A stretch of 62,069 nucleotides of DNA, counting the filler, from Sphacelaria rigidula (lineage: Eukaryota): NCBI GenBank assembly GCA_964200075.2. It is 10 parts of 10 records of this genome, joined end to end, with 100 filler letters (N's around TTAATTAATTAA, not from the genome) between each part and the next. Parts side by side here need not be neighbours in the genome. Positions count along the whole stretch, not along the records: positions 6,219 to 12,336 come from CAXNAA020022109.1; 9 more parts are not named here. The stretch is one strand, 5' to 3'. The notes under the pieces were generated by a model. The model searched no databases, had not been told where the DNA came from, and worked only from the letters and a program-made list of their open reading frames with translations. Both the position numbers and the translations under genes were made by a program. The stretch's first letter is position 1, and each line of letters opens with the position of its first letter. Below are positions 4,322-62,069 of the stretch, one piece after another.

Positions 4322-4740
4322 GTTTGACTGACTGATTGGTTGTTGCACATGAACTGAAGTCCCCAGGATCCAACCGTGGTTACATGATAGACGAGACACT
4401 CGGTCAAGGAAAAATGAAGAAAACAGCAGAAGGTGGAACAGACGCAAAGAGTGATAGTAGACTGATGGAAAACAAACCCAAGGAGGATACAAGAAAATGA
4501 AACAAGAACAAATACAAAAAGAAAAAAAGTGGAAAATGTAGCAACGGCCGACAACTGAAGAGCAAAAGCGCAGACGTTTTTTGGTCATTGTGCAAGCGTG
4601 GATTTGTTTCGACAACGCGGGCCTTCGTCGAATTTTCCCCGATTCATACGTTTCGTGTGCAACTCGCCAAGGCGTACTGTCTGAAGTGATGCTGAGAGGA
4701 GCACGGACGAGGTTATGCACGTGATTGAGAGACTGTTCGG
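4322..4740 (-). mobile_element. 5'-truncated LINE 3' end (family C)
   Basis: Minus strand: T/C-rich tract, then CGTCTATCATGTAACCACGGTTGGATCCTGGGG...GTGCAACAACCAATCAGTCAGTCAA, homologous to 20870-20945 and 58497-58575. Confidence 0.7.
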
Positions 4741-4795: not shown

Positions 4796-4891
4796 TATTT
4801 TTTGCCTTCGTTGTGGAGAATACAATATGGTCGGTGCACACTAAATAGTCTTTCTGCGATAGCCCCCTGCCGCCGCCCCCCCCCCCAAAAA

Positions 4892-4987
4892 GCCTGGTCC
4901 GGCGAAAACCCGGCGTGCTCCGTCCCGGCTTTGTAACGATGCGAGGTCAATCGTCTTAGGACTATGGCATGCGAGATCATGAGTATA
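4892..4987 (+). mobile_element. C-tract retroposon, subfamily A, short form; sits inside a degenerate family-E MITE (~4846-5042)
   Basis: GCCTGGTCCGGCGAAAACCCGGCGTGCTCCGTCCCGGC...GATCATGAGTAT; 7-bp TSD CCCAAAA at 4884-4890 and 4988-4994. Confidence 0.8.
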
Positions 4988-5151
4988 CCCAAAACCAGCG
5001 ACTTTTCTGGGGGGGGAGGGGGGGGCTGTCTTGGAAATTGTCGAAACATTTTTTTTGTTTTTTCTCCGTTCATTACGAATTGGACGTACGTATGTATGTA
5101 GTTGCGGAGTTATGACCTGATCGATCAACAAGCATATAATACTTCTCTGAG

Positions 5152-5400
5152 GACACTTTCCAAGATAGCCCCCGCCCGAAAAGTGCCTGCTTTGGAGAGG
5201 CAGAATGTTCACGTAAGTCGAAATGGAAAAAGCCGAGCACAACGAGCAGCTGGGATTTCCCACACCTGGGTTCGTTCTCGCCAATGTCGCCAATATGAGG
5301 CGAGTCATGCAGCCTGACCCCGAATATCAGGCGCTGTGTTGTAATTATTTTCGTGACACTTTTTGGCTGGTATTTTTGGGGGGCTATCGTAGAAAGTGTC
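5152..5400. mobile_element. MITE family E (~250 bp, GACACTTTCTACGATAGCCCC TIRs, 4-bp TSD)
   Basis: TIRs at both ends; interior homologous to 19486-19732 and 20588-20839; flanks TGAG/TGGG. Confidence 0.85.
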
Positions 5401-6051: not shown

Positions 6052-6094
<43 letters not shown>

Positions 6095-6218: not shown

Positions 6219-6475
6219 ACTAAGGCAAGCAACAAATGAGTACGCCCCCCCCCCTCCTTCCCCCCCGCTTCACATCGCAGCGGCGACGACGGCTGTACTG
6301 CTGCACAAGGCAGCCGCTCACTCTCTGCCAGTGTGTACGTGCGGCCTGGAGTCCGCCATTGAAGATGCTGCAGCATGGGTGCTGTACAACTCTCAGGAGT
6401 ATGAAGAGGCGGTTGCTGAGATGAACAGGCGAGCTGCTTGTTGATTGAAAGGGAGGGAGGGGACGGGGGGGGGGG

Positions 6476-6540
6476 CATGCTCAGTTGTTGCTTGCCTTAG
6501 TCGTTTGACCATTGACCACGCACCCCTTTCGAGGCGGAGC
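6476..6540 (-). mobile_element. C-tract retroposon, subfamily B; a partial + strand copy is at 6219-6250
   Basis: Reverse complement GCTCCGCCTCGAAAGGGGTGCGTGGTCAATGGTCAAACGACTAAGGCAAGCAACAACTGAGCATG followed by a C-run. Confidence 0.8.
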
Positions 6541-6649: not shown

Positions 6650-7243
6650 ACTGAGACTCCCACGGGAGATTTGCCGAAATATTGCGGGCGCTGCGTCAGT
6701 GTTCTGATTGTAGGGTCTGGGTGCGTGAATGACGCTTGGACGAAACATAGGTCGCTCGTCCTAGAGAGTGGGAGTATTTCCTTGGAGACCAGGTAAGGTA
6801 GCACGCTGTAGATCGTGGGGGGGCGAGATCGGGTGGAATATGATTTAATTTTCCGTTTGGACCGTAATAGTTGGTAGCATCCATTCGTGTGGAATATGAA
6901 CACGTTCTCGTCTATCTCTCCCCTTTGAGAAACAAAATACATTTTGACTTTCGTCTCTCTCGCCCGCTGTCGTTCCTTCCCTCGTGTTTTTGTATCGTAG
7001 TAAGAGTACCCTCTCGTAGGTTTTACTATTGTGTCGTCTCTGTTTTTCTGTTCAATTTCACTACATTTGATTATATTCCATTTTCTCATTGCCTTCTTCC
7101 CTGAGTGTTTCCGATTCCATTTATACCTTGAGTACGGTACGTCTGTTCCATGGATAATGATCGCGACCGGATCCCTCGGGGGTCAGTTAATATGAGACAA
7201 TCAACCAATCAACCAACCAACCAATCAATCAAATCAATCAATC
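6650..7243 (+). mobile_element. Decayed LINE 3' region with (CAAT/CAAC)n tail (family C variant)
   Basis: Pyrimidine-rich 6950-7130, terminal motif TGGATAATGATCGCG...GGGGGTCAGTTAA...GACAATC, then tetranucleotide tail 7197-7243; 5' limit approximate. Confidence 0.6.
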
Positions 7244-7641
7244 GACCAAGAGGCGCCGTGTCTATCAGAAGGGGTCGTGGGAGGAGGGGATGACGGAGCA
7301 TCTTTCTTAGGCGCCCAGTATTCCCAGCCCTTCGCTCCTTTTTTGTCTGGCTTCTTGATTCCTCTCGACCCTTCCTTTCCTCTGTCCCTGCCTCCCTCTC
7401 TCGGGACGAGCCCATGGTTTCTGAGGGAATCAATCAACCCGTACATCTAACTCTATTCCGCGGTGTCGTACTACGCACTTATTCTCAACTCTCAATATCA
7501 TCGATAATTGGATGAGCTATCGCCCGACCGAAAGCGTCTTCACGGTATTCCGACGAAACTGTCATGCTTTGCGCGCCCCTTCCGCTCCACGTTGTTGGGT
7601 CTACCTCGGATGTCCTGTGACTACGGGTCTGCACATTGGGG

Positions 7642-7674
7642 GGGCGTACTCATTTGTTGCTTGCCTTAGTCGTC
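7642..7674 (-). mobile_element. 5'-truncated C-tract retroposon (subfamily B) with 15-bp TSD
   Basis: GTCTGCACATTGGGG duplicated at 7627-7641 and 7675-7689 around the last ~30 nt of the element. Confidence 0.88.
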
Positions 7675-9019
7675 GTCTGCACATTGGGGTGCGGGCGAAT
7701 CACCGTCTTCGACCGTGACTGGTAAATATAGCGTAGAATATATTTGGAGAGATAACCAGGATCATCAGTAGATCGAATACCGCGTTGCGATTCAAAACGC
7801 AGTGATGGAGCGGAGGAGCAATTAACTTTCAAGCACATGTTAGCGCCCTCCAACGTAGAGTGTGTAATCGTCAGTCGGTTGTCGTCCAGAGGGTGGAATC
7901 CTGGTCCCCAAGCATGCACACACCATCATATTTGCTCGAAATATCGTTCAAATGTTTCGCGATGGTTGGGCTTCACGTGCTTCTTTTCTACATCGGAGTA
8001 GTAAAATATTGTACGTGCATTAATAATAATAATAATAATCAGCGAAGAGAAGTACAAGGGCACTTACTTCAATAAAAATCCTGGTCCATGGAACGGGTGT
8101 TGGCTGTGGTCTGCAAGAGTTCGGGGCGAGTCTTGCTTCTCGTGACCGCGATTGACATGTGAAGTCGTTCCCTCCCCCCGTCCCCCCTCCCCAATGGTTG
8201 ATCGTTGCAGATGGACAGAGGCTGGAAGTGCACAGGAGCGTGGAGATAGGGCGCCGGGGTGCCAATGCGATCCTCCCCACAAGGTGTGAACCATCGTGTA
8301 TTTCTAAGTGTGATTGGGGCAGGGTAGTTGTACCGTACCCCTTGGCATCCTGGGTGTTGCCCGGGGTACTTGTTGCAGTACCGAATACCCGAGGGTAGCT
8401 GGAGCATCCGACTGCCGTAGGATGTTGGGTATGTCAGGGTACTCGAGGTACAGGTATCAACTGCCGGAACGTGGCACCGACTATTCTCAGGATTGGCGGG
8501 GAATGAACTGAAAAAGGGTGCTGCGTATATATTCAGGTGTACCTCAAAATGATGACCTGTACCCGCACCCTGTCGGCGCTGGCTGTCGAAAACATTAACT
8601 ACTCTTTTTCTGGGGTACCTGCAATATCGACTGTATAGGGGTAAATGTTGAGTGCTTCAGGGTAGTACATGAGTACGCTGACTTGTACCGTTGTCCGAAG
8701 TGATGCGTTTTGTGAGTGTAAAGTCGGAGGGAGTTGGGGGGTGGCTAATGTCGAGCACAACTAGACGCGTCATCTGTCTTGTAGAATGTGTATGGAAGGG
8801 AATTATTCATGACTTGTTATTGGCCGATGTTGCTGTTGTTTGGGTGACCTTTCATCGTGCTTATTGCAGTACAAGTGAAAGTAGAGCGTTATAGCAGCTT
8901 GTATCAAGTATTCAATCTCGTAGTATGTATTCAAGGTCGGTTGTCTGTTGTTATCATTCCGTGTGTGTTGGAATATGGCACCCATATAAAGGCACATGCA
9001 GACTTTCGCTACACATCAA

Positions 9020-9200
9020 AACGTTGATGAAGTTTTGTTTGACGAGACATGATGCGGTGCGGGAGTGCTGATGGTCATGATCCAATCTGCGTTACCAAAG
9101 TGCAAGGCGTATACCGGGGGGGACATGGGTTGATCCCTTGAGACTAGTAGACCACGGACTCGTCCCGAGGAAGAGGAGGGGTTACAAGTGCGATAAGAAA
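9020..9200 (+). mobile_element. 5'-truncated SINE family D copy; a minus-strand 3' fragment is at ~7393-7441
   Basis: GCGGTGCGGGAGTGCTGAT...GACCACGGACTCGTCCCGAGGAAG...GGGGTTACAAGTGCGA matches 54325-54447 and the reverse complement of 985-1140. Confidence 0.82.
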
Positions 9201-9897
9201 AGCACAAAAATATCGACGGAAACTCGAGGGGCTGAAACGATGGGTGTGATAATAGGACAGGGTGGGGTAATGATGGAAACGAATAGTACAAGCTAAACTA
9301 CGTTAGTATCTAGTAGAGGCCCTGAGAAAAGAGGAAGACAAAAAACAACGAAAATCACAGGTCTTTGTCGCAGGGCTGCGGGTATAGAGTGAAAGCCCAA
9401 TGTCTACAGTAATAGTACGGTGTGCAATATTCGATAAATAATGTATTTTGTGACTCGAATAATTATATATAACGGTAAACATGGACATGGACGGGCTAAG
9501 GGTTCTGGTACAAAATTATCTTGTTTCGGAGCACCTCCACACGCCTCATATCGTCCTCCTTACAGGGTATGGGGTCAAGGTCGTGGTCTCTTATGGAAGC
9601 ACACTCATTAATCATGCGTGTACATCAGTGCTTGTATTGGCGAAATATTGCGTCTGTTACAGACAGAGGTCCTCCCTGTATGCCGATACATTGCAACGTG
9701 TAGCAGTGTGTACACGCAGTAGTCGCAACGTCCCTTCTTTTGTTCTCCCTGATAGGGCATGTGCTCAGCAGTTGATCGGGCAGCGTGCAGCTTCCTTCTC
9801 GACTCAATGTAGCACACCCTCTTTGATTCGACAGCGATACCTTTGCAGTCGTCATCCTCCTCCTTCCCGTGCCCGCGCGATGCATGACTCTGAACAG

Positions 9898-10029
9898 CAT
9901 GCCTGGTGCCTCGCCGCGACATACGAAGCGCACGGCCTGGACATGCCCAAGCCCGGCTGCACCTGCGTCGACGCCATATCCGTAGAGGAAACGGACGATA
10001 GGGTGTTGCTCTTCGGGGGAGCTTTTTAG
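9898..10029 (+). CDS. Probable terminal exon of an unknown gene (HAWCLAATYEAHGLDMPKPGCTCVDAISVEETDDRVLLFGGAF*)
   Basis: AACAG acceptor at 9897 after a pyrimidine-rich stretch; GC-rich coding-like run to TAG; no recognisable domain. Confidence 0.5.
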   Translation, partial: HAWCLAATYEAHGLDMPKPGCTCVDAISVEETDDRVLLFGGAF

Positions 10030-10737
10030 CCCGGCAGGGAATCGTGTGGAGGTTTATATCGGGGAAAAAAACGTACCGGTGGTGTGGTGGTCGGGTGGAC
10101 GGAGAGAGATGTTCTCGCGGGTGGGGAACGGTGGCGGAGGGGGGGATGACATGGCGTTTTTTTCTCTCTGCAGATCTTTCACCCGTATGTGTCTTGCGCG
10201 CAGCTATATGCGTTTTTTTCGTTTTAACTTTCGTAAGGGCGAGTATGTTATAGCATTCTTGGCGCCTATACGTGAAATTGCCCCCAACTCCAACCTGTAG
10301 CTAGATGGAGGGCGGGGTGTGTGTGTGCGGGGACGGGGAGGGGGCATGGGTTAGTACGATGTTGACGTCGGTGCAGCTGTCGCACACCATCTCTAGCCCA
10401 AATACTGTTGGGGGGGCAGAGAATAAAGATAGACTGCATGCAACAGCAGTGAGGGTCCAGGATCCTTGCCGTTGTATTGTTGTCGGCGCTTTTTTTGTGT
10501 GCTGTGCGGTACTTCCGAGGTATTTTTAGGGCCAATATTTGAACAGACACCAAGAAAGCATTTTTTTTGTCGGGCGCCGTCTGTGGTTGTTGTTGCTGTT
10601 GTTGCTGTTGTTGTTGTCGTTTTTTCATGACGAGCTTCTTGGGCTGCTTTGGCGTCATCTTGTATTGTTCCTTTCTTTGTTATGCGTTGTCCTCAGTTCA
10701 CAGCGCTCCAAAGTAGACATCCCCCCCTCTCCTCCCC

Positions 10738-10810
10738 GTGCTCCGTCCCGGCTTTGAAGCGATGCGAGGTCAAGGATTGTATGACTACGGCATGCAAGAT
10801 CATGAGCACT
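10738..10810 (+). mobile_element. C-tract retroposon, subfamily A, short form
   Basis: GTGCTCCGTCCCGGCTTTG...GCATGCAAGATCATGAGCAC with C-rich tracts on both sides. Confidence 0.8.
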
Positions 10811-11367
10811 CCCCCCTTCCCCCCCGCACGGACAGTGATGGCAATAGTGTGGCAAACATAGCATGTAGTCACCACTCGTGGGCTTAGGTATCGTCAGCCT
10901 GGTACTTGAGTAGTAACAAAGTATAGATGGCTCACGTACTGTAGCAAGTAGAAGATATAAATATATGCACATCATTGGCCGCTTAGGAAATATCGTAGAT
11001 GTATTTTGTGAAATGTTCCAGCGTAGATAATGTATATTGTATTGCGCATTCTGGCAGCTTACGAGATCCGTTTTGATATTATGGAATAATATTCTATCCT
11101 GATGTCCCTTCTCCCTTACAAGGCTTGTATCCTCGAAATGCTACAGGCGGGCAGTACGTGTACGAAATTGCAGTAATATGCTGGGCTGAACCGACTGCCT
11201 ACTACTGTCGTTGCTTGAAAGCTGTTCTCAGGCAAGGCATTCCTGGTCAGCGCTTAACGGCGCGGGTCACGAATGCAACGGCAGGTGCTTGGCCATAGGA
11301 CGTCCCTGTTCCCAACCACGTCTCGCCTGAGCTTAGGGTGACTCTCCTCATGTAACAGTTTCTTGCG

Positions 11368-11444: not shown

Positions 11445-14085
11445 ATGCACGCGACCGGTCGTACAATAGAGAAGCTCAATTACAGGATGTCAGCCCCCAT
11501 TTCGGTCACGCCAGCAAGAGTGAAGTCACTCGCACGAGGTATTGTTTCTCAATCTGGATACCAAAAAAGTCTACGCAAGTGTTTGATCTCTCATCCATCG
11601 ATCCCCCCGACTGGAATGTGGCAGATTCTTCTTGTCTTTGTTTCGCAGACATCAGGTGAAATCAACGACTGCAATAATACCCCCCAGCTTCCGATTATTA
11701 GATCTTGCCGCAAAGGCGAAGCCGTCATTGCTCGCATGTGTGTATGTGAGAGAGGACAGTAGCGGTGACCGGAACATCACCCTGCTTTCTGATGAAGTGT
11801 TTTACTGCACAAAGAGGCACTTCCTGTCCAAGCAGAGGGGCAGAGAGAAATCGATATTTGCATTGGTCAGCGCCACAGACAGGAGACGACGACCGGGGCA
11901 TCCCGCAATCTTGTTTCCACGGCTGCGCTGCAACACCCCACCCCCCCACACATGGCAACTTGGTTATGAGCTGGTACTGTAACATGATGCCAATCCGTGC
12001 AGCGATTGGGAATCGCCGAACAAGGACACACGAAGGACACCGGCGACAACCTTCCTCTCCGCCGTTGCTCCTCTAATGATGTCATCAACACGCTCATTCG
12101 GTGCACCACACCAGCGTAACTGCAACAGAAACTCTGCTTGCGAAGGTGCTTTCCCGTGGTGATACTGTTTGGCGTGAATTCTCGATTTGTTTTTTGTCCC
12201 CAGAGGACAGGAAGGAACCTCAAACCATGCACTTCACTATTTCTAGTTTCGTGCAGCGCTTCGAGTCGCTCCACCCGTCAGATATCCCCACCCGAGGGTA
12301 GACATGTCCGGCGAATGTATGGATAGGCACCAAGGTNNNNNNNNNNNNNNNNNNNNNNNNNNNNNNNNNNNNNNNNNNNNTTAATTAATTAANNNNNNNN
12401 NNNNNNNNNNNNNNNNNNNNNNNNNNNNNNNNNNNNTGGTTCGGTGTTTCGTTTTGTTATGTGTTTTTCGTCATTTTTTATACTATTTAGGAAAAAACCA
12501 CATAGTACCCCCCCCCCCCCCCCCCCCCGTCCCGACTCTCCATCCAATGTTCCATTGGTATGGTGGTTTTCGTCCCTTGTCTATGTTCGAAAGAGACGTG
12601 GGTCTCGGCGACCCCACACAGGTGATTGTCTGCTCTCCCCGATGGCACTTTATGGGCGATTAAGCACTTGAACATCAATACTCTACCACAGAGGTTAGTT
12701 CACCACTTGATAGGCGTAGACCTTTCTCGGAAATGTATGATTTCTAACCATCGTCCTATCCCTAAAACTCACCCCCAGCGAAGGCAAAATGTGCATGACA
12801 GAAGCAAGGTGGAGAATAAAAACCAGTAAAAAAGAAAAAACTTCTGTGTTGACCTTCATCCTGTGTGACCAGGGCTAGTGCGCCCACATATACCGAAAGG
12901 TGTAGACCGGCGTCCAGAATAGATGGGACGACAACACACACACACCCTTCGGCAGCAGCTTTACATGTGCCCAGGCATGCACGAACATGTCAGCACACGA
13001 AGCACAAATACGCAGGAAAACAAGAAAAAGGCACATCTTGTGTCGTTATCAGTCACGGAAAGGGCCTCCTTGAGTTTTTTTTTTCAACACTTGTGCTGAG
13101 CACCCGTATCATTTTACCGTCTACCGACGCCTACGAAAAACACGTGAATCTGCCCTCCAGAAACTCGCGAGACTGTTGTTAGCAGGGGAAAATCGAAGTA
13201 GGAAGCGTGGGGATTCAACGGATCCAATCGCCGATCGTTCATCTATACATACCCATGTTCCTCAACCGGCCCAAGGAATAGCCACGTGTAAGATTTTACA
13301 ACAAGAGTATCTGCAAACCGCCAAGTATGATACTGCCGTCTTGAACCTATCCTGTACGGTGCACCCGAGGCTTAAAGGGGAGAAAATCCATGCGCGCAAT
13401 ATGTACGCGGTACCACAGTACTGTTGTAATCGCTACATTTTCAACAAGAAAACTCATCGAGCGTGCATTGGGTGTAGAGTGGGGCTTTTGCATGATTCCG
13501 TAACAGAAGGGGAAAAAATGCGGTTGTGGACGCTCAGCCGTACGGTATTCTCTGGTGGAAGTCTCGTGTTTTTTATCGTTCGCCGCATGGCAGGCCGACC
13601 GATGCTCATTTCAACCAACGCCCAAAATGCGGAATCCGATGCCGCAAACAGCCAACCGTGCGGTATGAAATGGCTAGATATATCAAACAATTGCAGCCGA
13701 AGAGGCAGACGAACACAGGTTCGACGCCGACAGTGAAGAGGCTACATGCCAACGGCACAACTTCAGAAACACCCAAGCTTCAGCTACGGCACTCGACTCT
13801 GCCTGGGCCTGACTGCACCACCTCTTCCAACAGCCGTCCTGAAACTCACGATCGCGATAACATCTTGTGTCGGCTGATCGTTGCACCACCCCCCTCCTTG
13901 CTTTCCTGGCGGACTCGAAACAACGCAATATCGCCACCCTACTGCCCAGGTAAATAAGAACAGTACTATAGGGCCGAGCAAGGCCTGATATCGCTTCATC
14001 ACCCTATTCCACGCCGCTCACGCACACTCCGATCCACGACAGGCAGCGGTGCAACAGAGTGGGCGGCAACGAAAGACCGACGGGA

Positions 14086-17767: not shown

Positions 17768-17918
17768 ATTCCAAGAATTGGCTTAAGCATTTGGGGATGA
17801 ACGGATTTCGGTACATGGCTTGGGCGCGCCTGAAATCGTAGCCCATCTGCGCCTTTGTTGATCCCTCACCCCGCTACACACGCCGGTCTGCTTCTCGTAT
17901 ACTTTTGCGCTCGCCTAG

Positions 17919-18025
17919 CTCTATCGCCGACGATGACACACGGAAACATGGGGAAGTGGGAGAAGCAGCCTGGTGATGAGATCGCGGCCGGGGATGTAGT
18001 ATGTGAGGTGGAGACGGACAAAGCG
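17919..18025 (+). CDS. DLAT: Exon 2 of PDH E2, lipoyl domain
   Basis: TAG acceptor; spliced reading [38 protein letters not shown] with the lipoyl-lysine ETDKA motif; GTGAGT donor at 18026. An E3-binding-protein paralogue cannot be excluded from two exons. Confidence 0.9.
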
Positions 18026-18890
18026 GTGAGTCTCGCCTCATCTCATCCTTGTGATGTGGGACATTTGCTGCCCGAGCGTATTACCGTACGTGCTTCGTTG
18101 AACCGCGTGTTTTTTCTTTTCTTACCCCGCGTTCCGCTGCCCATGCCCCAACTTTTTGAAAGTAGTGCATGTGCTGATCTCAATGCCTCGCCGCAGCAGT
18201 TTGTTGAAGAAGGTTTGTATTGACGGGTGAGCTTTTACCACGTCTCGTTTTGAACCCTTGGTGGTATGGCCAACCATGGTAACTGCAGTAAGTCGTTGCA
18301 TGTGCGGATTTTATTGCCGGCTGAAGCATGCGTCAAGATGTCCTTCTGCGTGTAGGATCGTCGGGACAAAAGTTTCAAAGACTTCGCACGGCTCGTAGCC
18401 TATACACTATGTCCGCTCCATGGTTTTCATCTCGATTAGCGTGTCCAGCCTCCGCCTCACCCTGGGACGCATACATTTTTGTTTGATCTATACATTTCAT
18501 GTCAATGCCTCGATCCAACCCCCCACCACACCCGCACAGCCCCCACCCACCCCNNNNNNNNNNNNNNNNNNNNNNNNNNNNNNNNNNNNNNNNNNNNTTA
18601 ATTAATTAANNNNNNNNNNNNNNNNNNNNNNNNNNNNNNNNNNNNNNNNNNNNTGATGACTATGGCAAGCATGATCATGAGTACACCCCCCTATCGTAGG
18701 ATGACTCTGCATTTTTACTCATCTCTTGTTGGAACTCCTGCTATTCCCCTTTTATTTACAGTTTGTCTATTCTCCATTATTTGTACAGCTTCCTACCGCG
18801 CCTATTTGTGTTGCTCTCGTCTGCCGTCTGTCTGTTCATATTAGACAATGATCTGCAGCTCCTACGTCCGCCGCGCGTGCACGTATAATA

Positions 18891-19416
18891 CCCCACGTTT
18901 GAAATAGGCCCAGCCCAAGTTGAGATTTTTCTCGCGTGCACTCCTCGATAGTCGTCGCATTTTGCCAGTGTCGATAGATTTTGGTAAAGGGAAGATATCT
19001 TCTTCCCCCCCTAGTGCCCAAGTTAGTGATTGTCGATGACATCGGACGATACGAGAAAATACCCCATTTATCAGGAGAGTGTTATTGATCGTGAAACACA
19101 GTCATTCGGCTCTAGTTCTTGAAGTAGGTAGAAATTGAAAAACTATGCTTTTTTATTTCTATGCAAATGCGATCGGGACAGGCTCGACCGACCGAAAATA
19201 CAGAAGAATCAGGGCTGACAGGGGGCAGGACCCCCGATGACCGGTCAGCCCGTAAGCCACTCAACATTGAGTACAGATGTTTTTTCTCTGGGGATATGGA
19301 GCGGATACTAGTACAGTATCTTGAGGTATCAATGTGATGAGCGGTGGCAAGCGAAAGAACCTCAGAAAATAGCCGATGACGAAGAAATCACCAAATTTCC
19401 CACTTTGAACGTGGGG
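18891..19416. mobile_element. Tc1/mariner-type (TA TSD) MITE, 526 bp
   Basis: TA-CCCCACGTT...AACGTGGGG-TA; removing it rejoins the LINE frame (GTRSAS/IIRARAADVG). Confidence 0.75.
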
Positions 19417-19485
19417 TACTTGCACTTCTGGTCCCTTGCCTTTTCTACATTGCAGTCAGGAGGGAGCTTTCTACCTTTTGTATGC

Positions 19486-19732
19486 GACACTTTCTACGAT
19501 AGACCGACCCAAAAGAGTGCATGGTTTTGGGAGGCAAACTCTTCACGTAAATCGAAATGGGAAAAGCCGAACACAACGAGCAGCTGGAAATTCCCGCGCT
19601 TGGGTTCTTTCTAGCCAATGTCGCCAATACGAGACGCTTCATGCAGCCTGAATTCAAACATCAGGCGCTGATGGCCATTTTTTTCGTGACAGTTTTGGGC
19701 TGGTTTGGGGGGGAGCTATCATAGAAAGTATC
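19486..19732. mobile_element. MITE family E with 4-bp TSD ATGC
   Basis: GACACTTTCTACGATAG...CTATCATAGAAAGTATC; ATGC at 19482-19485 and 19733-19736; removal restores WARQCIQK. Confidence 0.9.
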
Positions 19733-20587
19733 ATGCATTGCCTAGCCCATTGCGGTTGTGGCTTTTAACTCCATTGTTCGATGTCGCCACACCGTTGTCC
19801 TTAAGTAGCCTCAAAATCTCCGCCCCATTCGTATTCTTCTCCGTTTCCCTGCTCTGCCCAACGTCATTGTTCGGTTGGCTTGCTGCCCCAATCCTTGCAT
19901 CAACGTGTCCGACCAATATCACGTCTCCTTGCCTTTATATTTATGTCCACCTGCTACTATATCTGAGAACTCCCCCTGTATATATGTTACCGGAAGCTTC
20001 GACCCTGGGGGCATATATATGTCCCTCAACGAAAAACCTTTTGTCCCCCGTTATCTTAGTAGCCTTATCCATATGCTATGGTCGAAGTCCGTGATTTTTA
20101 TCACTTCTAGAACCTCACGTGGGTATTCCCTGACTAAGGATCTTATTCCTCCGGCTCCCCTGCTCTTACGTTTCTGGCCCTTCCTCTCTTTCCCCATCCA
20201 TGCGTACTCTCAAACTTTGCATCGTTTCCCCGCCCCATCGCTCTCCCATGACGTTTGGATTCTCCATATATCTAGGTCGGGTTTACTTACTCGTTCGGCT
20301 ATCCCTATTATTTCGCGATCTTCCGTGGTGAATCCACACATATTTTACGATCCGATTGTCGCTTTCTTTTGGATTCACTACCCACCCCCCGCTTGTGTAG
20401 TCCTCTCTGTGTCGTTTTTCCTTATGATCTCCATTTTTTCATTTTTAATTGCATTTACGATTGTTTCTTGTATGGTTTATGTGGGCTGCTGTTTCCCCCC
20501 CCTTTCCTTCCGGGCATTTACTTCTCCCTGCTTCCCCTTTCCTCAGGTTACCCGAGGGCTACGCCTTAGGTTCGCTCTCCCATTAGC

Positions 20588-20839
20588 GACACTTTCTACG
20601 ATTGCCCCCTCCTCGAAAACCAGCCCAAACCTGTCACGAAGAAAATGGTCATACAGCGCCTGATTTTTTGCTTCAGGCTGCATGAAGCGGCTCATATGGG
20701 CGACATTGGCGAGAACGAACTCAGGGGTGGAAATTCCCAGCTACTCGTTGTGCTCGGTGTTTTCCGTTTTGATTTACGTGAAGATTTTGCCCCCCCAAGC
20801 CAGCCTCTTCTCTGGGGGGAAACTATCGTAGAAAGCGTC
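20588..20839. mobile_element. MITE family E, opposite orientation
   Basis: TIRs GACACTTTCTACGAT / ATCGTAGAAAGCGTC; flanks TAGC/TGGC. Confidence 0.85.
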
Positions 20840-20869
20840 TGGCTATACGTCAGTTTCGTTTTGTCTTTT

Positions 20870-20946
20870 GGGTACGTCTATCATATGACCACGGCTGAAT
20901 CACTGGGGGGTCAGTTAAAGTGCGACAATCAATCAATTAGTCAAAT
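20870..20946 (+). mobile_element. LINE 3' terminus (family C)
   Basis: GGGTACGTCTATCATATGACCACGG...GGGGGGTCAGTTAAAGTGCGACAATCAATCAAT. Confidence 0.75.
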
Positions 20947-21779
20947 ACATCATACACACTCTTCACGCTGCCCTCTAAGCCGTGCCGGCACTTTCACTCG
21001 TCTCGATCCTCTCTCGCTCCCTGCTTGCCTGACCCTAGTAGTTGCTGCGGGTCCGGTGTCTTTCAACTTTTTTACTGGCTCGCCGACACTAAATGATGCC
21101 TTCGACACGAGATCGTAGCCTGAAACCACGTTCAACACCATTGACACAAGTACCTCACATTTGTGCCAGGCGATCTGCATGGTATACCCATCCAGGCGTC
21201 CCACGATCGTGTCTCATATCCTCTTCCCTCACTGTTCTCGTTGCTTTTGTCCTGGGAGGTCACTTTTACCGTGTAAGCTTCGAGGATGACTTACATTACA
21301 CGAAGTGTTCCTCACACATCGGAATGTCCCGTACATCACTCCTTCCCATTCCTTGTACGGTTCATCATGGGTTTCCACTACACTAATGCCCCCGAGTAGA
21401 CCTTCGATGTCAAAAGCTTGGCCGACGATTCGCCTCATTCTTGTGCCTGGTTTTATTCTGCAAGATCTTAAGATATCTACGTACTGCTTTGTGCTCCTTC
21501 TTTCTGGTCATGTGGTCGGTCCCTGGCAAAGTGTTTGCTCCATGAGTACAGTAGCTCTCAGCGTATTTGACGCCGGTGCACCTATTGTCGAGGATTTGAA
21601 GATGTAGTTCCCGGATGTTTCACCACGAGACCCAACCGTCATACGAACTCAACAGGTCGGGGTGACCTTGTTGTTCTATCTGTACTTGTTGATGTCCATC
21701 TTTTTTGTGTGTCGATTTATGTGTAAGGGGGTCAACCAGCAAGCTATTACTTACATGTCTGGGTTTTCATCGTTGCTTT

Positions 21780-27240: not shown

Positions 27241-27760
27241 GGTGTGCTCATGATCTTGCATGCCGTAGTCACAAGACCATTGACCTCGCATCCCTGCCCA
27301 AGCCGGGACGGAGCACGCCGGGTTTTTGCCGGACCGGGTTCGCACTCGATCACCAAGCGCGAAGCGCCGTGGTGTGTTCGGCGAGTCGCATTGAGGTTGA
27401 GCGGCATCCTGCAGTGATTGTTTGGCCTGAAGTGATTGCCTTGCGTATGTATGACAGCCTCGAATGAATTTCTTCGTTGTCTGGTATCACCACTTTCAGA
27501 GACAGCCACGGGCTACACGGCTACACACTGCCTCGTGGATGTCTCACCATTCAAAAACAGCATAGTGAGACCCCCCCCTTTGCGCGGAGTTCGGTCTTTC
27601 CACCTTGCACAAAATGATGTAGCTCGAGCACCATCATCATTGCCGCAAAAAAACGCAAGCGAAAAAAACCCCGGTAACCTGGTTGCCTAGCTTACGCAGT
27701 GAACGGCGTGTTTTTCAGCGTCATTCCCAACCGACGCCAACCCTCAGGAGGGGGGCCGCG
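27241..27760 (-). mobile_element. C-tract retroposon, long form lacking the 5' repeat
   Basis: Collinear with 60160-60663 (e.g. TCACTGCGTAAGCTAGGCAACCAGG identical); ends GATCATGAGCACACC. Confidence 0.85.
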
Positions 27761-27918
27761 GGGGGGGTGCTAGATGAAGCATGCCCTATACCTCGGCCCC
27801 ACTGGACAGTAAATGGTAATTAAGTGTGAGAGGAGGACATGTGTTGCGTGAGGAATTAAATTGGGCAGGTTCTCCTTTACATCGCACAACCGAACCATGT
27901 GGGGGCAACAGTTTGCAG

Positions 27919-27959
<41 letters not shown>

Positions 27960-30835: not shown

Positions 30836-30987
30836 CTCCGTCTCGAAAGAGATGCGCGGTCACTGGTCAAACGACTAAGGAAAGCAATAAATAACTACTC
30901 CCCCCCCCCCCCCCCCTCGCCTGGTCCGGCGAGAACCCGGCGTGCTCCGTCCCGGCTTTGTAGGGGCGGACCCCCGATGGGGTTGGC
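30836..30987 (+). mobile_element. Subfamily B copy (30836-30900), its C-run, then the 5' start of a long subfamily A copy (30919 to contig end)
   Basis: CTCCGTCTCGAAAGAGATGCG...ACTACT(C)n then GCCTGGTCCGGCGAGAACCCGG...GGACCCCCGATGGGGTTGGC, as at 60109. Confidence 0.8.
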
Positions 30988-55853: not shown

Positions 55854-56877
55854 NNNNNNNNNNNNNNNNNNNNNNNNNNNNNNNNNNNNNNNNNNNNTTA
55901 ATTAATTAANNNNNNNNNNNNNNNNNNNNNNNNNNNNNNNNNNNNNNNNNNNNGGAAGCAAGATCCACTGTCCTATGACAATGGAAAGCAATATGATGAG
56001 TACACCCCCCCCCCCCCTCCCTCTCTCTCGTCTCTATTGGTCAATGGTCATATGACTAGGCATGCAATATCATGAGGACGCCCCCCACCCGCCTCTAATG
56101 GTGCATGACGCCGGGTATGTATTTCACCTGGGAAGACAGCCCCAAGGAAATCGCGAACGTGTTTACTTTGAGACGCAGGAGGAACGGACTGGAACAAGAC
56201 ACAAGTGGGGCAAACAGACAAGAGCAAGGGCAGGGAGGAAGAGGAAAAGGGGAGAAGAGAAAAGGGGGAAAATATAAGGGTAACGGTAAGGGTGTGTATT
56301 TATGTTGGGCTGCGGTCAGAAAACGGTACACGTCGCCTCTTTTTGGCCAGTTTTTAGGATACACAGTGGTCAATCAGCGTGTGTTTTTCGTAGCGCGCAG
56401 GAGATATGGACTCCACCTGATTTTACTCGTTTTCATCCAGAACACGCAATGCTACATTCTTTCCACACGTTCACGGGATGAAAAAAAGGGGCACGAGTAT
56501 GGGACATGATTATGGGACATGCGTATGGGACTGCATCTCCTCGTCGGCCCTACAGCCGGTGTTGAAATGTACCAGATGTACCATCCGGGCGGGGCGACCA
56601 TATCATAGAGGCGCCATACATGTCGGAATATCAAAAGATGACGTGGGCTAGATTGTTACCTAACCGGTCGAAGGGTTCGCAACGACCAAATAGCCAGACG
56701 AGCACTCGTAACATGCGTCTCCTCTGTTATGGTACTCCCCTCGTTTCCCCGTGCCCTCGCGCCAGATCGACGACATCATCTAATCAAAACCGGGTGATAG
56801 GGTGTGAGTTCAATCGCTGGGCGGACAACGATATAAGCAAGCGTCGAATCAGCGCGCAGTCTTGTACAAGTGCAGTT

Positions 56878-56950
56878 TTGATCAATTAATTGATTGATCG
56901 ATTGTCGTACTTTGGCTGACCCCCAGGGATCCAGGCGTGGTCACTCGATG
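56878..56950 (-). mobile_element. LINE 3' terminus (family C)
   Basis: Reverse complement GACCACGCCTGGATCCCTGGGGGTCAGCCAAAGTACGACAATCGATCAATCAAT. Confidence 0.72.
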
Positions 56951-57592: not shown

Positions 57593-57897
57593 GCACAAAG
57601 TTGATCATACCCAGTGGTGTTTGCGAGAATTCCACTCCGGAATAAATGCAGCGAATGGGATTGCATACTGCCTAGTACTGAAGCGCGTGTGCAACACGCC
57701 GTCAGGCGCAGCATATAGCACAGTGCAGTGTAGTTGTACAGTACACAAGAACGAGAACTAGAACAAGAGGAGAAAAAAATAGGCCTCCCGATCAATCACT
57801 GACGAAAATGAAAACACTTCACATATTTGGAACCGCAAGTGGTGCTCGAAGACCTCCCTCCAGGAGCATCACGTACACACACACAAACAAGTATGTG

Positions 57898-57973
57898 GGG
57901 GTGTACCCATGATCATGCATGCGATAGTCATAGGACCATTGACCTCGCATCCCTACAATGCCGGGACGGAGCA
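57898..57973 (-). mobile_element. C-tract retroposon subfamily A; further copies at 59221-59319 (-) and partials at 18654-18690, 55954-56010, 56039-56086 (+)
   Basis: Reverse complement TGCTCCGTCCCGGCATTGTAGGGATGCGAGGTCAATGGTCCTATGACT...CATGGGTACACCCC. Confidence 0.82.
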
Positions 57974-58575: not shown

Positions 58576-58728
58576 ACATACATGCATATATACATGTACA
58601 AATATACACCCATGCACAACAAAAAGAACTGTTTTATATCTCAACTGGTCAGCGAAATAGTACTACAGTAACGTGTACTTTCTTGTTGCTTCACCCTCCC
58701 CCGCCCCTTCCATCTCCTCCCCTCACCG

Positions 58729-58800
58729 GTGCTCCGTCTCGAATGGGATGCGTGGTCAATGGTCAGACGACTGAGGCAAGCAACAAATGAATACTCCCCC
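58729..58800 (+). mobile_element. C-tract retroposon subfamily B; further copies at 60677-60745 (+) and 61163-61244 (-)
   Basis: GTGCTCCGTCTCGAATGGGATGCGTGGTCAATGGTCAGACGACTGAGGCAAGCAACAAATGAATACT(C)n; the 61163 copy has TSD GCATAACAGRGGG at 61150-61162 and 61245-61257. Confidence 0.82.
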
Positions 58801-60108
58801 CCCTCCCGACCGTGTACTTGACGTGCAAGGCTATTCAGATTTTCAACATGAAGATTTACGTCTTTTTATGTACCTGCACGGGGCCCCGTGACCAAAACGG
58901 CTATTTTCTCCGTCAGTGCTTCGTTGTGACGACGGCGCGACGTAGTATAATGGTGTTGTCACATAGACACCCAAAAGTTCGCTTATTTTCCGCATTTTCC
59001 CGAGGCACGCGCTTCATGAGGCACAAAAATCGAGAAGCTTGAAGTGCGTCAAAGTATAAATGAAGAGAGGAGGCATAGTTCACGCCCGCCTTTGCGATCA
59101 TGTTTCTGACTCCGGTTCTTCCAAAAAAAGGAAAAACCTGCCCTTGGGAACAGATCAACGCTGAGAGACATAAACCACATCAGGGAAGGGGGTTTGGGAG
59201 GAGAAGGTGGCGGGTCGGCTGGGGGGTAGTCATGACTCTGATACCGTCGTCATCAGACCATTGATCTCGCATCCCTACAAAGCCGGGACGGACCACGCCG
59301 GAGTTTCGCCGACAAGGCTCACTCACCAAGGACACCACGAGACAGAACCAATCTATGGTACGCATATTTCTTCCAACACCCCCTCTGCAAGGATCACGGG
59401 TGGATGCACACAAGTGCGACGAGAGAAGGATCAAATCGCAGCCTGAGGGAGGCAGGGGTTTGGGCGGTGAAGTGGGGTCACGCTACAGCTATGACGTGTG
59501 CGAGAAAGAAGATGACGTGCACGTATGTGTTGTGTAGAATGTCAAAAACGTTTGCTGTCACATTTTTTCCCTCCTCGATGCTTTCGGTGTCAAAACAAAA
59601 ATTCGATCAATGCGGTACATCATGGGAGGCAGCTTCTATCTTTACCGTCTGCGCAATTCATGCGCTATAAGTAACATGGTAGACAGTTGTACAGAATAAC
59701 AAGGACGAAACTGTCCTCCCTGCCCCCAACCAACGCTAATCCACGTTCTCCGTTACGGCACGATCGGCTGGTTTGTTCATGCGGTCATATACCTTCTCAT
59801 CACGACGCTGTTGGAATTGTTTTGGTCGGTCGGCATATATGTGTGCTACCTGCACATTACAGTAGAAGCGTAAAACACCAGCCGCTCAATAGAAGCTCAT
59901 TTACATTTTTGTCATGTATCGCCCCGCACAAACCCTTAACTTCTTCTGTCCCCATCCCTCTCCGCGTCAGCCAGCGAAATAAGCCAAACTGAAGGCCATT
60001 TTGATCTCCGGAGACCCAACGACGTCATTCCGGACCCGCGGCACTTATTATGGTCTCGCGGAGACGAGGTGCGCAGCATCCCCCTCCCCCTCCCCCTCCA
60101 GTGCTTTA

Positions 60109-60663
60109 GCCTGTCCGGCGAAACCCGGCGTGCTCCGTCCCGGCTTTGTAGGGACGGACCCCCTATGGAGTTGGCGTCAGCTGTGTAACACCCCACTCAC
60201 TGCGTAAGCTAGGCAACCAGGATACCGTCTTTTTTTGCGCGCTTCCGGTTTTTTTTGCGGTAACCATGATGGTAATCGAGCTCGATCTAACTGTGTGGGG
60301 GGATGGAAAAACCTCGATTCCGCACAAAGGGGATAGGCATACTACGTAGTGTTTAAATTGTGAGACATTCATGAGGAAGTGTGTAAGCCATAGCTGTCTC
60401 TGGGAGTGACGATGCGAGAAAATGAAGCAACTCATTGGAGGCTGTCATTCATCCAAATGCAAGAAAATCAGTACGCTTCGGACCGAACAATCTTAGCAGG
60501 ATGCAGCTCATCCTTCATGCAACTCGCCGAACACATCATGGCGCCTCTCGCTTGCCGATTGAGTGCGAGCGTGGTCCGGCGAAAACCCAGCATGCTCCGT
60601 CACGGCTTGTAGGGATACGAGGTCAATGGTCAGATGATTACGGGATGCAAGATCATGAATACA
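60109..60663 (+). mobile_element. Long form (~555 bp) of the C-tract retroposon, with ~45-bp terminal direct repeat and ~50-bp 3' tail
   Basis: Repeat R at 60109-60153 and 60569-60614; only the 3' copy is followed by the ...GAGGTCAATGGTC...CATGAATAC tail; body collinear with 27241-27760. Confidence 0.82.
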
Positions 60664-62069
60664 TGCTCCTCCCTCAGTGCTCCATCTCGAAAGGGGTGCG
60701 TGGTCATTGGCCAAATGACTACGGCAAAAAATTGAGAACACCCCTTCCGGGGAGATGACTGCTTTCGAAGCTCGATTATTTTTAAAGCCTTCGATTGTCA
60801 CTGGAGCCGCCGACGAACGTTTTAACGTCGGAGAAGTTTCCTCGCGGCTTTCCCTAAACAAAAGGAGACAAAAGCGCCCGAAGAGCAGCGCGCAAGGTCC
60901 GCTTCTCGAAGAATCCGAAGTCGAACCGCTTATGGGTCCGCGGTGTCGGTCCGCCGTCAACTACGGTGCAGTCCGCATATGCCGTGTTTGCTTGCCAGAG
61001 TCATTCATCTCCAGTTGATAATGAAAAACAAGGGGTAGGTGCGGTGTTTTTATGAAAGAGGGCGAATGAACATCCATAGGGACGTGGAATAGCAATGAAA
61101 TAATACAGCAGTGTGTCACTTGGCGTTCTCCCGAATCCTCGACCCATGGGCATAACAGGGGGGTGCACTCATTTCTTGTTTGTCTTATTCGTTTGACCAT
61201 TGACCCCGCATCCCTTTCGAGATGGGGCATCCTTTCTACTCCTTGCATAACAGAGGGAGGGGGGGGGGTGGGGCATATTTGCCTCCCCCTACTATTGTTC
61301 GGCTCACCTGCTTCAGGCCTTTGTTCGTTTTCGATCCCAAGCTTCACCGCAATGGTTGTTTTCGGCACTGACTTGTAATTCGCACACTCAAAGTTCATAA
61401 TAGTAAAGACGTTTCTTTGTCAGCCTTGTAAGTCATGCTACCACGATAGGGAAAATGATTTTTTGGGTCATTTCTTCCACGAAATTCCACTTCAAATCGT
61501 CGTTGAAAGCAGCAGCGGTTGTTAGGACGTGATCGTTACCGATAAATAACGCTCATTAATACTAGTTGACACCGCTTTTTACCCGAAGGCATGCGCACCG
61601 CGAGTGGGTTAGGTCGTCTGAAACACGTATGAGCCCTGTTCAGGTGGATTCAAACACCTTGTACATCACGGTACGACTCTTGAGTACTTACTGTACGTGT
61701 ATCTCCTGACTAAATCTGGGCCTTGTGGGAATCAGTAAATGTGCGACAATCAAGGCGTTCCGCAACCCTAGTAGCTGATACAGCCTACATATGTAGAGAG
61801 AGATGAAGAGACCCAGGCAAATCAACACGTTCACACGCGCACCCGAATAGAACAGTACCCGCAGGTCCTCCCGCTATTCAGAGTTTTTGCGTCGGATGCT
61901 TTGCGAAGGATCCCTCTCAACGCTTCGCCAGCCGGAAGCGGTCCACTCGTGGAATTGACATCATTATTCCTTGAAGAGGACTGAAAATAACGATGAGTCC
62001 ACAGATGGACCACCTCCGGCGGTCGAAAGGTTAAACATGGGACGGGAGGGGGGGGGGGGGCGTACCCAT

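Follow-up and report, generated by a model that had tools for sequence, protein, structure and literature searches.

Positions 7627..7689 (minus strand) of the window, by which we mean the whole stretch of 62,069 nucleotides analysed here, contain a 30-nt sequence (7674->7645) that is followed by three extra C's (7644->7642) and enclosed by a perfect 15-bp target site duplication (TSD; 7675-7689 and 7627-7641, CCCCAATGTGCAGAC on the element strand). What kind of element leaves so short a copy, and which enzyme inserts it beside C's? The first-pass annotation grouped this copy with others, of two related types (A and B), into a retroposon family ending in C-runs. Our analysis indicates that the B copies are very likely 5'-truncated insertions of a LINE with an APE-type endonuclease, and that the A copies represent its non-coding, non-autonomous partner.

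Copies of the family in the window

The window is made up of ten whole contigs of 6116-6118 bp, placed in descending size order and separated by N spacers. The host is, as judged from sequence, a brown alga, since an exon of the window shares 86% identity with proteins of Ectocarpus and Pylaiella. All of the public runs used here consist of contigs. X1 and X4 originate from the same organism as the window; X3 and X5, in which a GT..AG joint is visible, carry the label 'RNA?', and among the runs listed with the stretch none is recorded as RNA.

Self-BLAST recovered all 17 copies listed by the first-pass annotation, distributed, as claimed, on five of the ten contigs. An additional copy (62048..62069, minus strand) consists of a C13 tail and the final 9 nt of the element, cut by a contig end. 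The A and B sequences are homologous over their last ~73 nt. The motif CATGAGTACNCCCC, with at most 2 mismatches allowed, occurs 12 times in the window against 1.2 expected, a number reached in none of 100 shuffles.

Besides the copy at 7627..7689, the B type is represented by the 65 terminal nucleotides of the LINE plus a C11 tail (6465..6540, minus strand; C-rich flanks mask any TSD), by the last 69 nt with a C8 tail, a copy that preserves the reading frame of the LINE C-terminus (58727..58803, plus strand), and by the last 80 nt within 61150..61257 (minus strand; element about 61163-61244), flanked by a TSD matching at 12 of 13 positions (61150-61162 and 61245-61257). A further B copy with a C17 tail (30836..30916, plus strand) runs directly into a 5' portion of a long A element, which lies inside this C-tail and is cut by the contig end (30919..30987, plus strand); the region 30899-30987 is 83% identical to 60079-60175 in self-BLAST. 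The B copy at 60677..60745 (plus strand), whose 3' end has diverged, is located directly behind another long A element, and of that at 6219..6254 (plus strand), where the contig begins within the element, the 3' end and a C10 tail remain.

The A element exists in forms of ~100 nt and ~555 nt. The long form is present in full length (556 nt) at 60108..60663 (plus strand; 60568-60661 correspond to its 3' part) and as a 5'-truncated copy of about 530 nt at 27241..27770 (minus strand), which is 76% identical to 60187-60658. Full-length short A elements were found at 4884..4994 (plus strand; element 4891-4987, 97 nt), within the C-run of another repeat and between two copies of the 7-bp TSD CCCAAAA (4884-4890 and 4988-4994), and at 59221..59319 (minus strand), followed by C6; both have an identical, exact 5' end (4891 and 59319). 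Since the first ~45 nt of the long form recur 461-462 nt downstream (60113-60146 and 60574-60608), the short form looks like a deletion between these two direct repeats. The remaining A copies comprise one starting 67 nt before the tail (10737..10816, plus strand), one starting about 70 nt before it (57897..57973, minus strand), one truncated at its 5' end to 42 nt and followed by C6 (56039..56086, plus strand), and a 3' end with C6 whose upstream part is lost at the contig start (18654..18691, plus strand). At 55954..56017 (plus strand) there is another 3' end of the family, with a C13 tail, also cut by a contig start. The copy at 10737 is located in a transcribed exon or UTR: a 1219-nt contig from X3 and X5 spans 9896-11114, across this copy.

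A strict SINE with a Pol III-type head (tRNA, 5S or 7SL) was also considered for A and rejected, as no tRNA was found in the window and no Rfam family matched between 60050 and 61300 at E values up to 10; in addition, the long form contains internal runs of 7-8 T, at which Pol III would stop. An HDV-like or hammerhead ribozyme as the cause of the fixed 5' ends was dropped for want of an Rfam match. The Rfam searches returned nothing relevant for the whole window at gathering scores, and no hammerhead, HDV-like ribozyme, tRNA, 5S or 7SL in the region 60050-61300 at E values up to 10.

A LINE with the same tail

A scan with the tail motif retrieved three marine metagenome contigs (4.4-5.6 kb), each with the B tail followed by a run of C8-C11. 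In these contigs the B sequence constitutes the final 64-80 nt of a long reverse-transcriptase ORF, whose TGA stop codon lies within ATGAGTAC, 5 nt upstream of the C-run. The two contigs with 2 kb of upstream DNA (L001 and L003) each contain an open ORF of 678 residues that ends in ...NGQMTKASNK and includes an RVT_1 domain (E 2.8e-33 and 3.1e-31, respectively). Their relatives P0003 (1360 aa, 90% identical to the L001 ORF) and P0004 (76%) are full-length single ORFs with Exo_endo_phos at residues 170-392 (E 3.4e-12 in P0003 and 8.1e-15 in P0004) and RVT_1 at 740-989. Exo_endo_phos, Exo_endo_phos_2 and RVT_1 were the only domains found in the LINE ORF and its relatives, with no match to GIY-YIG. 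A long reverse-transcriptase element with the same 3' 80 nt, such as the first-pass annotation had envisaged, thus exists, in copies that come from metagenome contigs and not from the genome of the window, and the proposal of a retroposon of the target-primed type is supported by an APE-type LINE that encodes a reverse transcriptase, shares the tail and ends with C's.

Similarity of the B copies to the LINE is limited to its last 64-80 nt, at 83-100% identity. The copy at 7627..7689 is 100% identical to both L001 and L003 over 34-36 nt, that at 6465..6540 is 92% identical to both over 73 nt, and that at 58727..58803 is 92% identical to L001 over 77 nt. The A copies are 72-87% identical to the LINE over 35-86 nt; the values for the long form are 80-83% over 40 nt at 60108..60663 and 76-88% over 40-55 nt at 27241. 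Only the last ~70 nt are common to A and the LINE. Of the LINE body, the window shows no more than a diverged 5' part (18705..20593, minus strand), 45% identical to residues 88-309 of P0003 (tblastn, best E 6e-45), with weaker matches reaching residue 459. Among 203 ORFs of the window (12 of at least 150 aa and 191 of at least 90 aa), Pfam recognized no RVT_1, APE or GIY-YIG domain; its only matches were to a Copia RT, the finger of a Gypsy integrase, a lipoyl exon and, weakly, Pex24p.

The gene model P0005 of Ectocarpus ends in the same LINE C-terminus (71% identical). Based on this homologue, and on annotated traits common with Ectocarpus RTE-X elements, the LINE very probably belongs to the RTE-X group. 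It carries a Cys-His motif C-terminal to the reverse transcriptase; elements of the RTE clade are not known to carry such a motif. The PDB matches (L1 ORF2p and R2) do not separate LINE clades, the L1 ORF2p match (E 7e-21) covering the reverse transcriptase only.

5' ends, C-tails and target sites

The first-pass annotation described the 5' ends as variable, and this holds only in part. The copy at 7645-7674 is truly truncated, because 209 contigs of X1 continue past 7673 with family sequence, whereas the copies at 6219, 18654 and 55954 are cut by contig ends and are therefore uninformative in this respect. The other 5' ends do not vary freely: six of them, belonging to five of the seven B copies and to one A copy, lie 64-80 nt before the C-run, and a second A copy (57897) starts, by inspection, ~70 nt before it. 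Such clustering is not predicted by simple random truncation.

It might reflect a discrete small RNA, i.e. a tail-only 'mini' retroposon represented by the short B copies and the A copies starting with them, which would obtain its own 5' end from a start site or by processing. The confinement of the six starts to a 16-nt span speaks for this idea, given that the ORF of the LINE, with its 1360 codons, already occupies about 4.1 kb. So does the exact common 5' end of the full-length short A copies, as do 157 contigs of X1 that extend 5' of the copy ending at 6540, where 12 further family letters give way to a G-run (a C-run on the element strand). On the other hand, the starts do not coincide but are scattered over these 16 nt, two copies measure only 30 and 42 nt, and in X4 the sequence beyond the 5' end of the 6540 copy agrees in part with the LINE body. 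In the Rfam searches described above, the sequences concerned match no ribozyme or other family. Moreover, the region of the starts is itself C-rich (GCTCCGTCYC); microhomology with C-rich target ends, or a stop of the reverse transcriptase at the neighbouring hairpin, would also produce such a cluster. With so very small a sample of 5' ends, we consider a separate small RNA a tentative and rather unlikely explanation; if true, this ~70-90-nt retroposon would be among the shortest mobile RNAs known.

The 3' end is fixed and usually followed by C's, in agreement with the first-pass annotation: at least 4 C's, and at most 17, are present after 13 of the 16 copies retaining it. The RNA could nevertheless end in ...GTACN, with no C-tail of its own, and integrate beside C-tracts, all of the C's being then contributed by the target. 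Three copies fit this assumption, since all 3 trailing C's at 4891 belong to the TSD and the elements at 27241 and 60663 are followed by 2 and 0 C's, respectively. However, the 3 C's at 7642-7644 are additional to the 4 within the TSD, tails in the window reach C17, and all three LINE contigs end in their C8-C11 run. Furthermore, the consensus of 321 run contigs that extend past the 3' end shows at least 12 more C's after the C10 run, before unrelated letters begin, and the curators of the Ectocarpus repeats annotated '(C)n 3'' as a feature of the element itself (PMC12477816). An exclusively target-derived origin of the C's is thus improbable.

The tail can be folded into a hairpin whose stem is constant and whose loop varies (UGGUC-NNNN-GACUA). 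RNAalifold applied to 11 tails yielded a weak consensus of -2.66 kcal/mol with 8 predicted pairs, a compensatory change in one of them and no covariation support for the predicted structure.

Insertion into C-rich DNA is supported by the 30-nt 5' flanks: C makes up 46% of their element strand, compared with 24.7% +/- 2.6% in random sets (at most 35% among 2000 of them). The three TSDs named in the first-pass annotation are present at the positions given there, matching at 15/15 (7627), 7/7 (4884) and 12/13 (61150) positions, so that the duplications are 7-15 bp long and begin with C's. A TSD can be demonstrated in 3 of the 12 testable copies, or in 4 if a 7-nt match at 60108 is counted, which lies 2 nt off the 5' junction and 11 nt off the 3' one; in the remaining copies C-rich flanks conceal any TSD or there is none, the latter being the case at 57897 and 59221. 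Paralogous empty sites at 5378, 19707 and 20814 confirm the 7-bp TSD of the copy at 4891; among the public run contigs none was seen to bridge an empty site. Flank matches with at least 7 non-C letters were found for 2 of the 12 testable copies versus 1 of 132 mismatched flank pairs, and those with at least 5 for 4 of the 12 versus 13 of the 132. The longest common substring of the flanks (mean 6.9 for true and 5.8 for mismatched pairs) gives no separation, and since all flanks are C-rich, true pairs do not stand out by plain match length.

These features are compatible with the following course of events. The endonuclease would nick the G-run strand of a C/G tract, and the exposed G's would pair with the terminal C's of the RNA, where reverse transcription would begin; this priming of G on C is a candidate step only. 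The reverse transcriptase would recognize the conserved ~70-nt tail, and for this reason A would be copied in trans. The C-run may be templated by the master copy and maintained or lengthened via slippage. As every insertion would duplicate part of a C-tract, new targets would be created in the process. Taken jointly, the propositions that priming by a G-tract at a templated (C)n end of the RNA is a distinct, experimentally unstudied mode of starting target-primed reverse transcription, that the LINE seeds and spreads G/C tracts in brown-alga genomes, and that the cluster of 5' ends marks a tail-only retroposon of ~70-90 nt, form a combination that we regard as unlikely to hold in full.

Relation to known elements

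The first-pass annotation mentioned a preference for C-tracts in some Penelope-like elements of green algae, a lead that did not prove fruitful. Members of the Chlamys group from green algae and protists, whose GIY-YIG endonuclease-reverse transcriptase could have mobilized non-autonomous relatives at (C)n repeats, are reported to prefer (CA)n and (C)n repeats as insertion sites, to be 5'-truncated and to include non-autonomous forms that have 3' ends in common with autonomous ones and occur in head-to-tail arrays (PMC8557442); Chlamys families exist in Ectocarpus as well (PMC12477816). Head-to-tail pairs are also present in the window (a B copy followed by A at 30836/30919 and an A copy followed by B at 60108/60677), but they mix subfamilies and are explained by insertion into the C-tail of an earlier copy. 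The element carrying the exact tail encodes Exo_endo_phos and RVT_1, i.e. an APE nuclease rather than the GIY-YIG nuclease of Chlamys. Pseudo-LTRs, another Chlamys trait (PMC8557442), are not what the long A element has, since its 45-nt repeat is internal and no partial tandem copy reaches the 3' end. The Ectocarpus Chlamys family with an annotated 3' end has (A)n, while (C)n is annotated for RTE-X LINEs (PMC12477816). No hammerhead was found between 60050 and 61300 at E values up to 10; most Chlamys elements also lack hammerheads (PMC8557442). A Penelope-like origin is therefore highly improbable. Still less credible, to the point of being hardly conceivable, is a DNA transposon or MITE with terminal inverted repeats, which the small size, the many copies and the flanking direct repeats might bring to mind, because the full-length long A element has no inverted repeats, the demonstrable TSDs differ in length (7, 13 and 15 bp), truncation affects one side only, and the tail is the 3' end of a reverse-transcriptase ORF.

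With an APE-type LINE as the source of the tail, the closest parallels are found in Ectocarpus, for which the transposon catalogue (PMC12477816, Genome Biol 2025) lists RTEX-1_Ec32 and RTEX-2_Ec32, two RTE-X LINEs annotated as '(C)n 3'' and with TSDs described as 'C-rich'. It also lists the non-autonomous RTEX-N1_Ec32 (607 bp; 83% similarity over 60 bp of the 3' end; 'can be present in tandem') and RTEX-N2_Ec32 (188 bp). Our elements agree with these catalogued ones, as far as they are annotated there, in the brown-alga host, the single endonuclease-reverse transcriptase ORF, the (C)n 3' end and the C-rich TSDs. They share with RTEX-N1 a very abundant partner of ~600 bp with an unexplained 5' head, ~60 bp of the 3' end common with the LINE at ~83% and the possibility of tandem arrangement, and with RTEX-N2 a second, shorter partner carrying the same tail. 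They differ in coming from another species, as the window exon indicates, and in size: the partners measure about 555 and about 100 nt here versus 607 and 188 bp, and the LINE contigs 4.4-5.6 kb versus 5.5-5.9 kb for the RTEX-1 and RTEX-2 consensus sequences (PMC12477816). The first-pass annotation had named agreement with a known family as a refutation of its proposal; such agreement exists in kind, the window elements being of a kind already catalogued in Ectocarpus, a match that concerns annotated traits and not consensus sequences.

The gain over the catalogued kind is accordingly incremental. It consists of the ORF end placed 5 nt from the tail, the overlap of only ~70 nt between partner and LINE, and the clustering of 5' ends. 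The passages available from PMC12477816 give the tail in a table only, and within them priming, the position of the ORF end and the 5'-end clustering are not discussed. A literature search for poly-C or C-rich tails with LINEs returned no such phrase among the matches listed.

More broadly, the family resembles human L1 and Alu in the presumed APE-type nick and target-primed reverse transcription, in TSDs that, where demonstrable, vary in length and start with the tail nucleotide, in 5' truncation and in a short, non-coding partner that would be mobilized in trans. In contrast to L1 and Alu, the tail is built of C instead of A; it therefore does not come from polyadenylation and would be templated or arise via slippage. 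Unlike Alu, the A element shares with its LINE a specific tail of ~70 nt, beyond the homopolymer, as is the case in 'stringent' LINE/SINE pairs. UnaL2 and UnaSINE1 of the eel form such a pair, in which the partner carries the conserved 3' tail of the LINE, ending in a simple repeat. The same arrangement is seen in A, together with a predicted tail hairpin in which the stem is constant and the loop variable; the differences are that the repeat unit is here a single nucleotide and that the tail is coding until 5 nt from the repeat. The family offers a naturally occurring non-A system in which to study whether a LINE chooses its priming site by endonuclease preference or by annealing of primer and template.

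For the genome concerned, the LINE and its partner account for a very abundant repeat of this brown alga, much of its excess of C/G homopolymers and some of its assembly breaks. As many as 37,973 contigs of X1 and 43,899 of X4 map to one 6-kb window contig, stacked at the copies, and bins with family copies total 3e5-1.5e6 versus ~30 for unique DNA, some of them being also inflated by other repeats on the contig. Runs of at least 6 C or G number 79 per 61 kb of the window, and 5 of the 20 window contig ends lie inside copies of the family.

A LINE and a non-coding partner with a common tail

Our analyses have shown a retrotransposon system composed of a LINE that carries APE and RT and ends in (C)n, and of a partner that has only the ~70-nt tail in common with it, with C-starting target-site duplications (TSDs) and C-rich targets. 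The pieces of the window (62,069 nt) are ten whole contigs of a fragmented assembly, ordered from longest to shortest (6118 to 6116 bp) and joined by spacers of the form N44-TTAATTAATTAA-N44. The first-pass annotation had placed 17 copies of the two related repeats, A and B, on 5 of these 10 contigs, and self-BLAST of the window recovered every one of these positions, together with an additional copy (62048-62069) interrupted by a contig end. On the element strand (the one on which copies end in C's) A and B can be aligned across their last ~73 nt, which terminate with ATGAGTAC-N and then C's. The terminal motif, with at most 2 mismatches allowed, was found 12 times in the window, vs 1.2 expected, a number reached in none of 100 shuffles. 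Directly behind 13 of the 16 copies having a 3' end there are 4-17 C's.

The repeats had been interpreted as retroposons, for which a long RT-encoding element with the same 3' end should exist. This interpretation is correct, and such an autonomous partner, carrying the B tail, was found when a degenerate tail motif was scanned across metagenome contigs. The B tail is present in all three contigs detected, with C8, C11 or C10 behind it, and their upstream sequences are conserved. In two of them (L001 and L003) the upstream 2 kb forms a single open frame of 678 residues with an RVT_1 domain (E 2.8e-33 and 3.1e-31, respectively). This frame traverses the entire B sequence (peptide C-terminus ...NGQMTKASNK) and stops at a TGA within ATGAGTAC, 5 nt ahead of the C-run; B therefore represents the 3'-terminal coding sequence of a LINE. 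The protein collection contains full-length relatives, P0003 (1360 aa, with 90% identity) and P0004 (1328 aa, 76%), each of them a single ORF with Exo_endo_phos followed by RVT_1 (residues 170-392 and 740-989 of P0003). A Cys-His motif lies C-terminal to the RT, and no GIY-YIG domain was found in the LINE proteins. The same C-terminus (71% identity) is present in P0005, a gene model of Ectocarpus sp.

In the window, the similarity of B copies to the LINE is confined to its last 64-80 nt (83-100% identity), and the sole LINE body present is a diverged 5' fragment (18705-20593, 45% identity). The A copies match the terminal stretch of the LINE at 72-87%, and by inspection the reading frame is not kept in their version of the tail. 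A is a non-coding element having the tail alone in common with the LINE. The long form of A occupies positions 60108-60663 (556 nt, the A copy at 60568 being its 3' part), and a second, 5'-truncated copy (27241-27770) is 76% identical to it. There are no inverted repeats in the long A at 60108-60663, and its initial ~45 nt are repeated 461-462 nt downstream. Since the short A (~100 nt; copies at 4891 and 59319) begins exactly at this repeat, it looks like the product of a deletion between the two repeats.

Insertion sites and proposed mechanism

Three TSDs had been described, and all are exact as given: 15/15 around the 30-nt copy 7645-7674, 7/7 (CCCAAAA) around 4891-4987, and 12/13 around 61163-61244. 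Paralogous empty sites of copy 4891 are provided by the copies of its host repeat at 5378, 19707 and 20814, where GATAG, a C-run, AAA(A) and CCAGC follow one another in this order once; at the filled site CCCAAAA flanks the element on either side. Nevertheless, the TSD evidence is weaker than a first inspection suggests. Flank matches of at least 7 non-C letters were found in 2 of the 12 testable copies vs 1 of 132 mismatched flank pairs used as a control, and matches of at least 5 in 4 of 12 vs 13 of 132. All flanks are C-rich, so the mere length of a match fails to distinguish true from mismatched pairs. No TSD was seen at two copies. The 5' truncation initially proposed holds for the 30-nt copy, since family sequence continues past 7673 in 209 contigs of public sequencing runs, but the copies at 6219, 18654 and 55954 are merely cut by contig ends.

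The 5' flanks (30 nt, 14 copies, element strand) contain 46% C, vs 24.7% +/- 2.6% in 2000 random sets (maximum 35%). Three of these flanks (30919, 56039, 60679) are tails or ends of older copies, and insertion beside the tails of earlier copies is a prediction of C-tract preference.

We propose that the LINE endonuclease nicks the G-run strand, and that the exposed G's could then pair with the terminal C's of the RNA, priming cDNA synthesis. Recognition by the RT would depend on the specific tail, in the manner of stringent LINE/SINE pairs, and the C-run would be templated by the master copy and extended through slippage. Three C's at 7642-7644 are in excess of those within the TSD, so some C's would come from the RNA. 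Both tails keep a putative hairpin, UGGUC-NNNN-GACUA, with a constant stem, a variable loop and almost no covariation.

Contigs of four public runs (X1, X3, X4 and X5) were aligned to contig 2 of the window (37,973 contigs in X1 and 43,899 in X4). The family is very abundant: the summed depth, which is not a copy number and is raised in some bins by other repeats, is 3e5-1.5e6 in family-copy bins vs about 30 in unique bins of X1. Past the 3' end at 6254 there are at least 12 further C's and then unrelated letters (321 contigs, agreement 0.39). Past the 5' end at 6540, the family sequence extends for another 12 letters in X1 before a G-run (157 contigs), and in X4 the letters partly track the LINE body (160 contigs). 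The 5' ends of six copies lie 64-80 nt ahead of the tail. Microhomology of C-rich target ends with the C-rich stretch GCTCCGTCYC could account for this clustering, and so could a stop of the RT or a small, discrete RNA serving as template.

Relationship to known elements

The Penelope-like affinity initially suggested has a real basis, as (CA)n and (C)n are reported targets of Chlamys elements, among whose described features are non-autonomous forms with common 3' ends (PMC8557442). However, this identity was dropped: the LINE nuclease is APE and GIY-YIG, the defining feature, is lacking. The match that decides the comparison is with a 2025 transposon catalogue of Ectocarpus (PMC12477816). In its entries the Chlamys-1 family is given as "(A)n 3'", RTEX-1 as "single EN-RT ORF; (C)n 3'" with a "C-rich" TSD, and RTEX-2 as "(C)n termini/TSD"; RTEX-N1 (607 bp) has "60 bp 3' end 83% RTEX-1/RTEX-2" and "can be present in tandem", and RTEX-N2 (188 bp) a "similar 3' tail". 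All the traits annotated there for these four RTEX elements, compared as annotation alone, agree with those of the window family. Thus, by annotated traits, the LINE and its partner very likely belong to RTE-X, and according to these entries elements of this kind have been catalogued before in a brown alga related to the host. Points of mild interest are the proposed G-on-C priming, the ORF end 5 nt from the tail and the clustered 5' ends.

Other features of the window

Five of the 20 contig ends lie inside family copies and another is 25 nt beyond a C41 run (piece boundaries 6118/6219, 18553/18654, 30987/31088, 55853/55954 and 62069); the family and its C-runs thus appear to break the assembly. 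The window contains 79 runs of at least 6 C or G (41 C-runs, 38 G-runs), of which 15 abut 3' ends of identified copies. C-runs of 41, 21, 40 and 27 (6053-6093, 12508-12528, 27920-27959, 28058-28084) have no recognisable copy adjoining, and one very long C-run flanks an N10 gap (27993-28002). Such runs may represent the expanded tails of almost completely truncated copies, or of other families.

A second repeat (~250 bp, 79-80% alike) occurs at 5152-5400, 19486-19732 and, inverted, 20588-20839, with the internal motif CTTTCTACGATAG, a C-run and AAAA; a fourth copy is partial, and the A copy at 4891 is inserted in its C-run. On contig 4, two copies are located within or beside the diverged LINE 5' fragment, so this repeat may be a LINE 5' region. 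A further dispersed repeat (~100 bp, 80-85% alike; 20852-20950, 58482-58579, 4323-4393, 56890-56942, 7157-7209), whose sequence has no relationship to A or B, contains an internal C-run (…ACTTTAACTGA and then C6-8). Contig 1 carries a degenerate tandem-repeat block (1299-2637) with many self-matches at 68-85%.

Copia and Gypsy remnants are also present. P0005 is a chimeric 1927-aa model, in which a Gypsy-type polyprotein with PF08719 (presumably the NADAR domain) is joined to the 3' third of the LINE, and is probably an annotation artefact across nested transposons. A lipoyl-domain exon (17834-18220) has its top identity (86%) with proteins of the brown algae Ectocarpus sp. and Pylaiella littoralis. 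We consider the host, a eukaryote, to be a brown alga; public runs containing this DNA bear the label "algae metagenome". In X3 and X5, both marked "RNA?", we found a GT..AG joint omitting 8282-9895 and a 1219-nt contig (depth 141) spanning 9896-11114. A transcribed exon or UTR therefore appears to include the A copy at 10737-10816 in the sense orientation.
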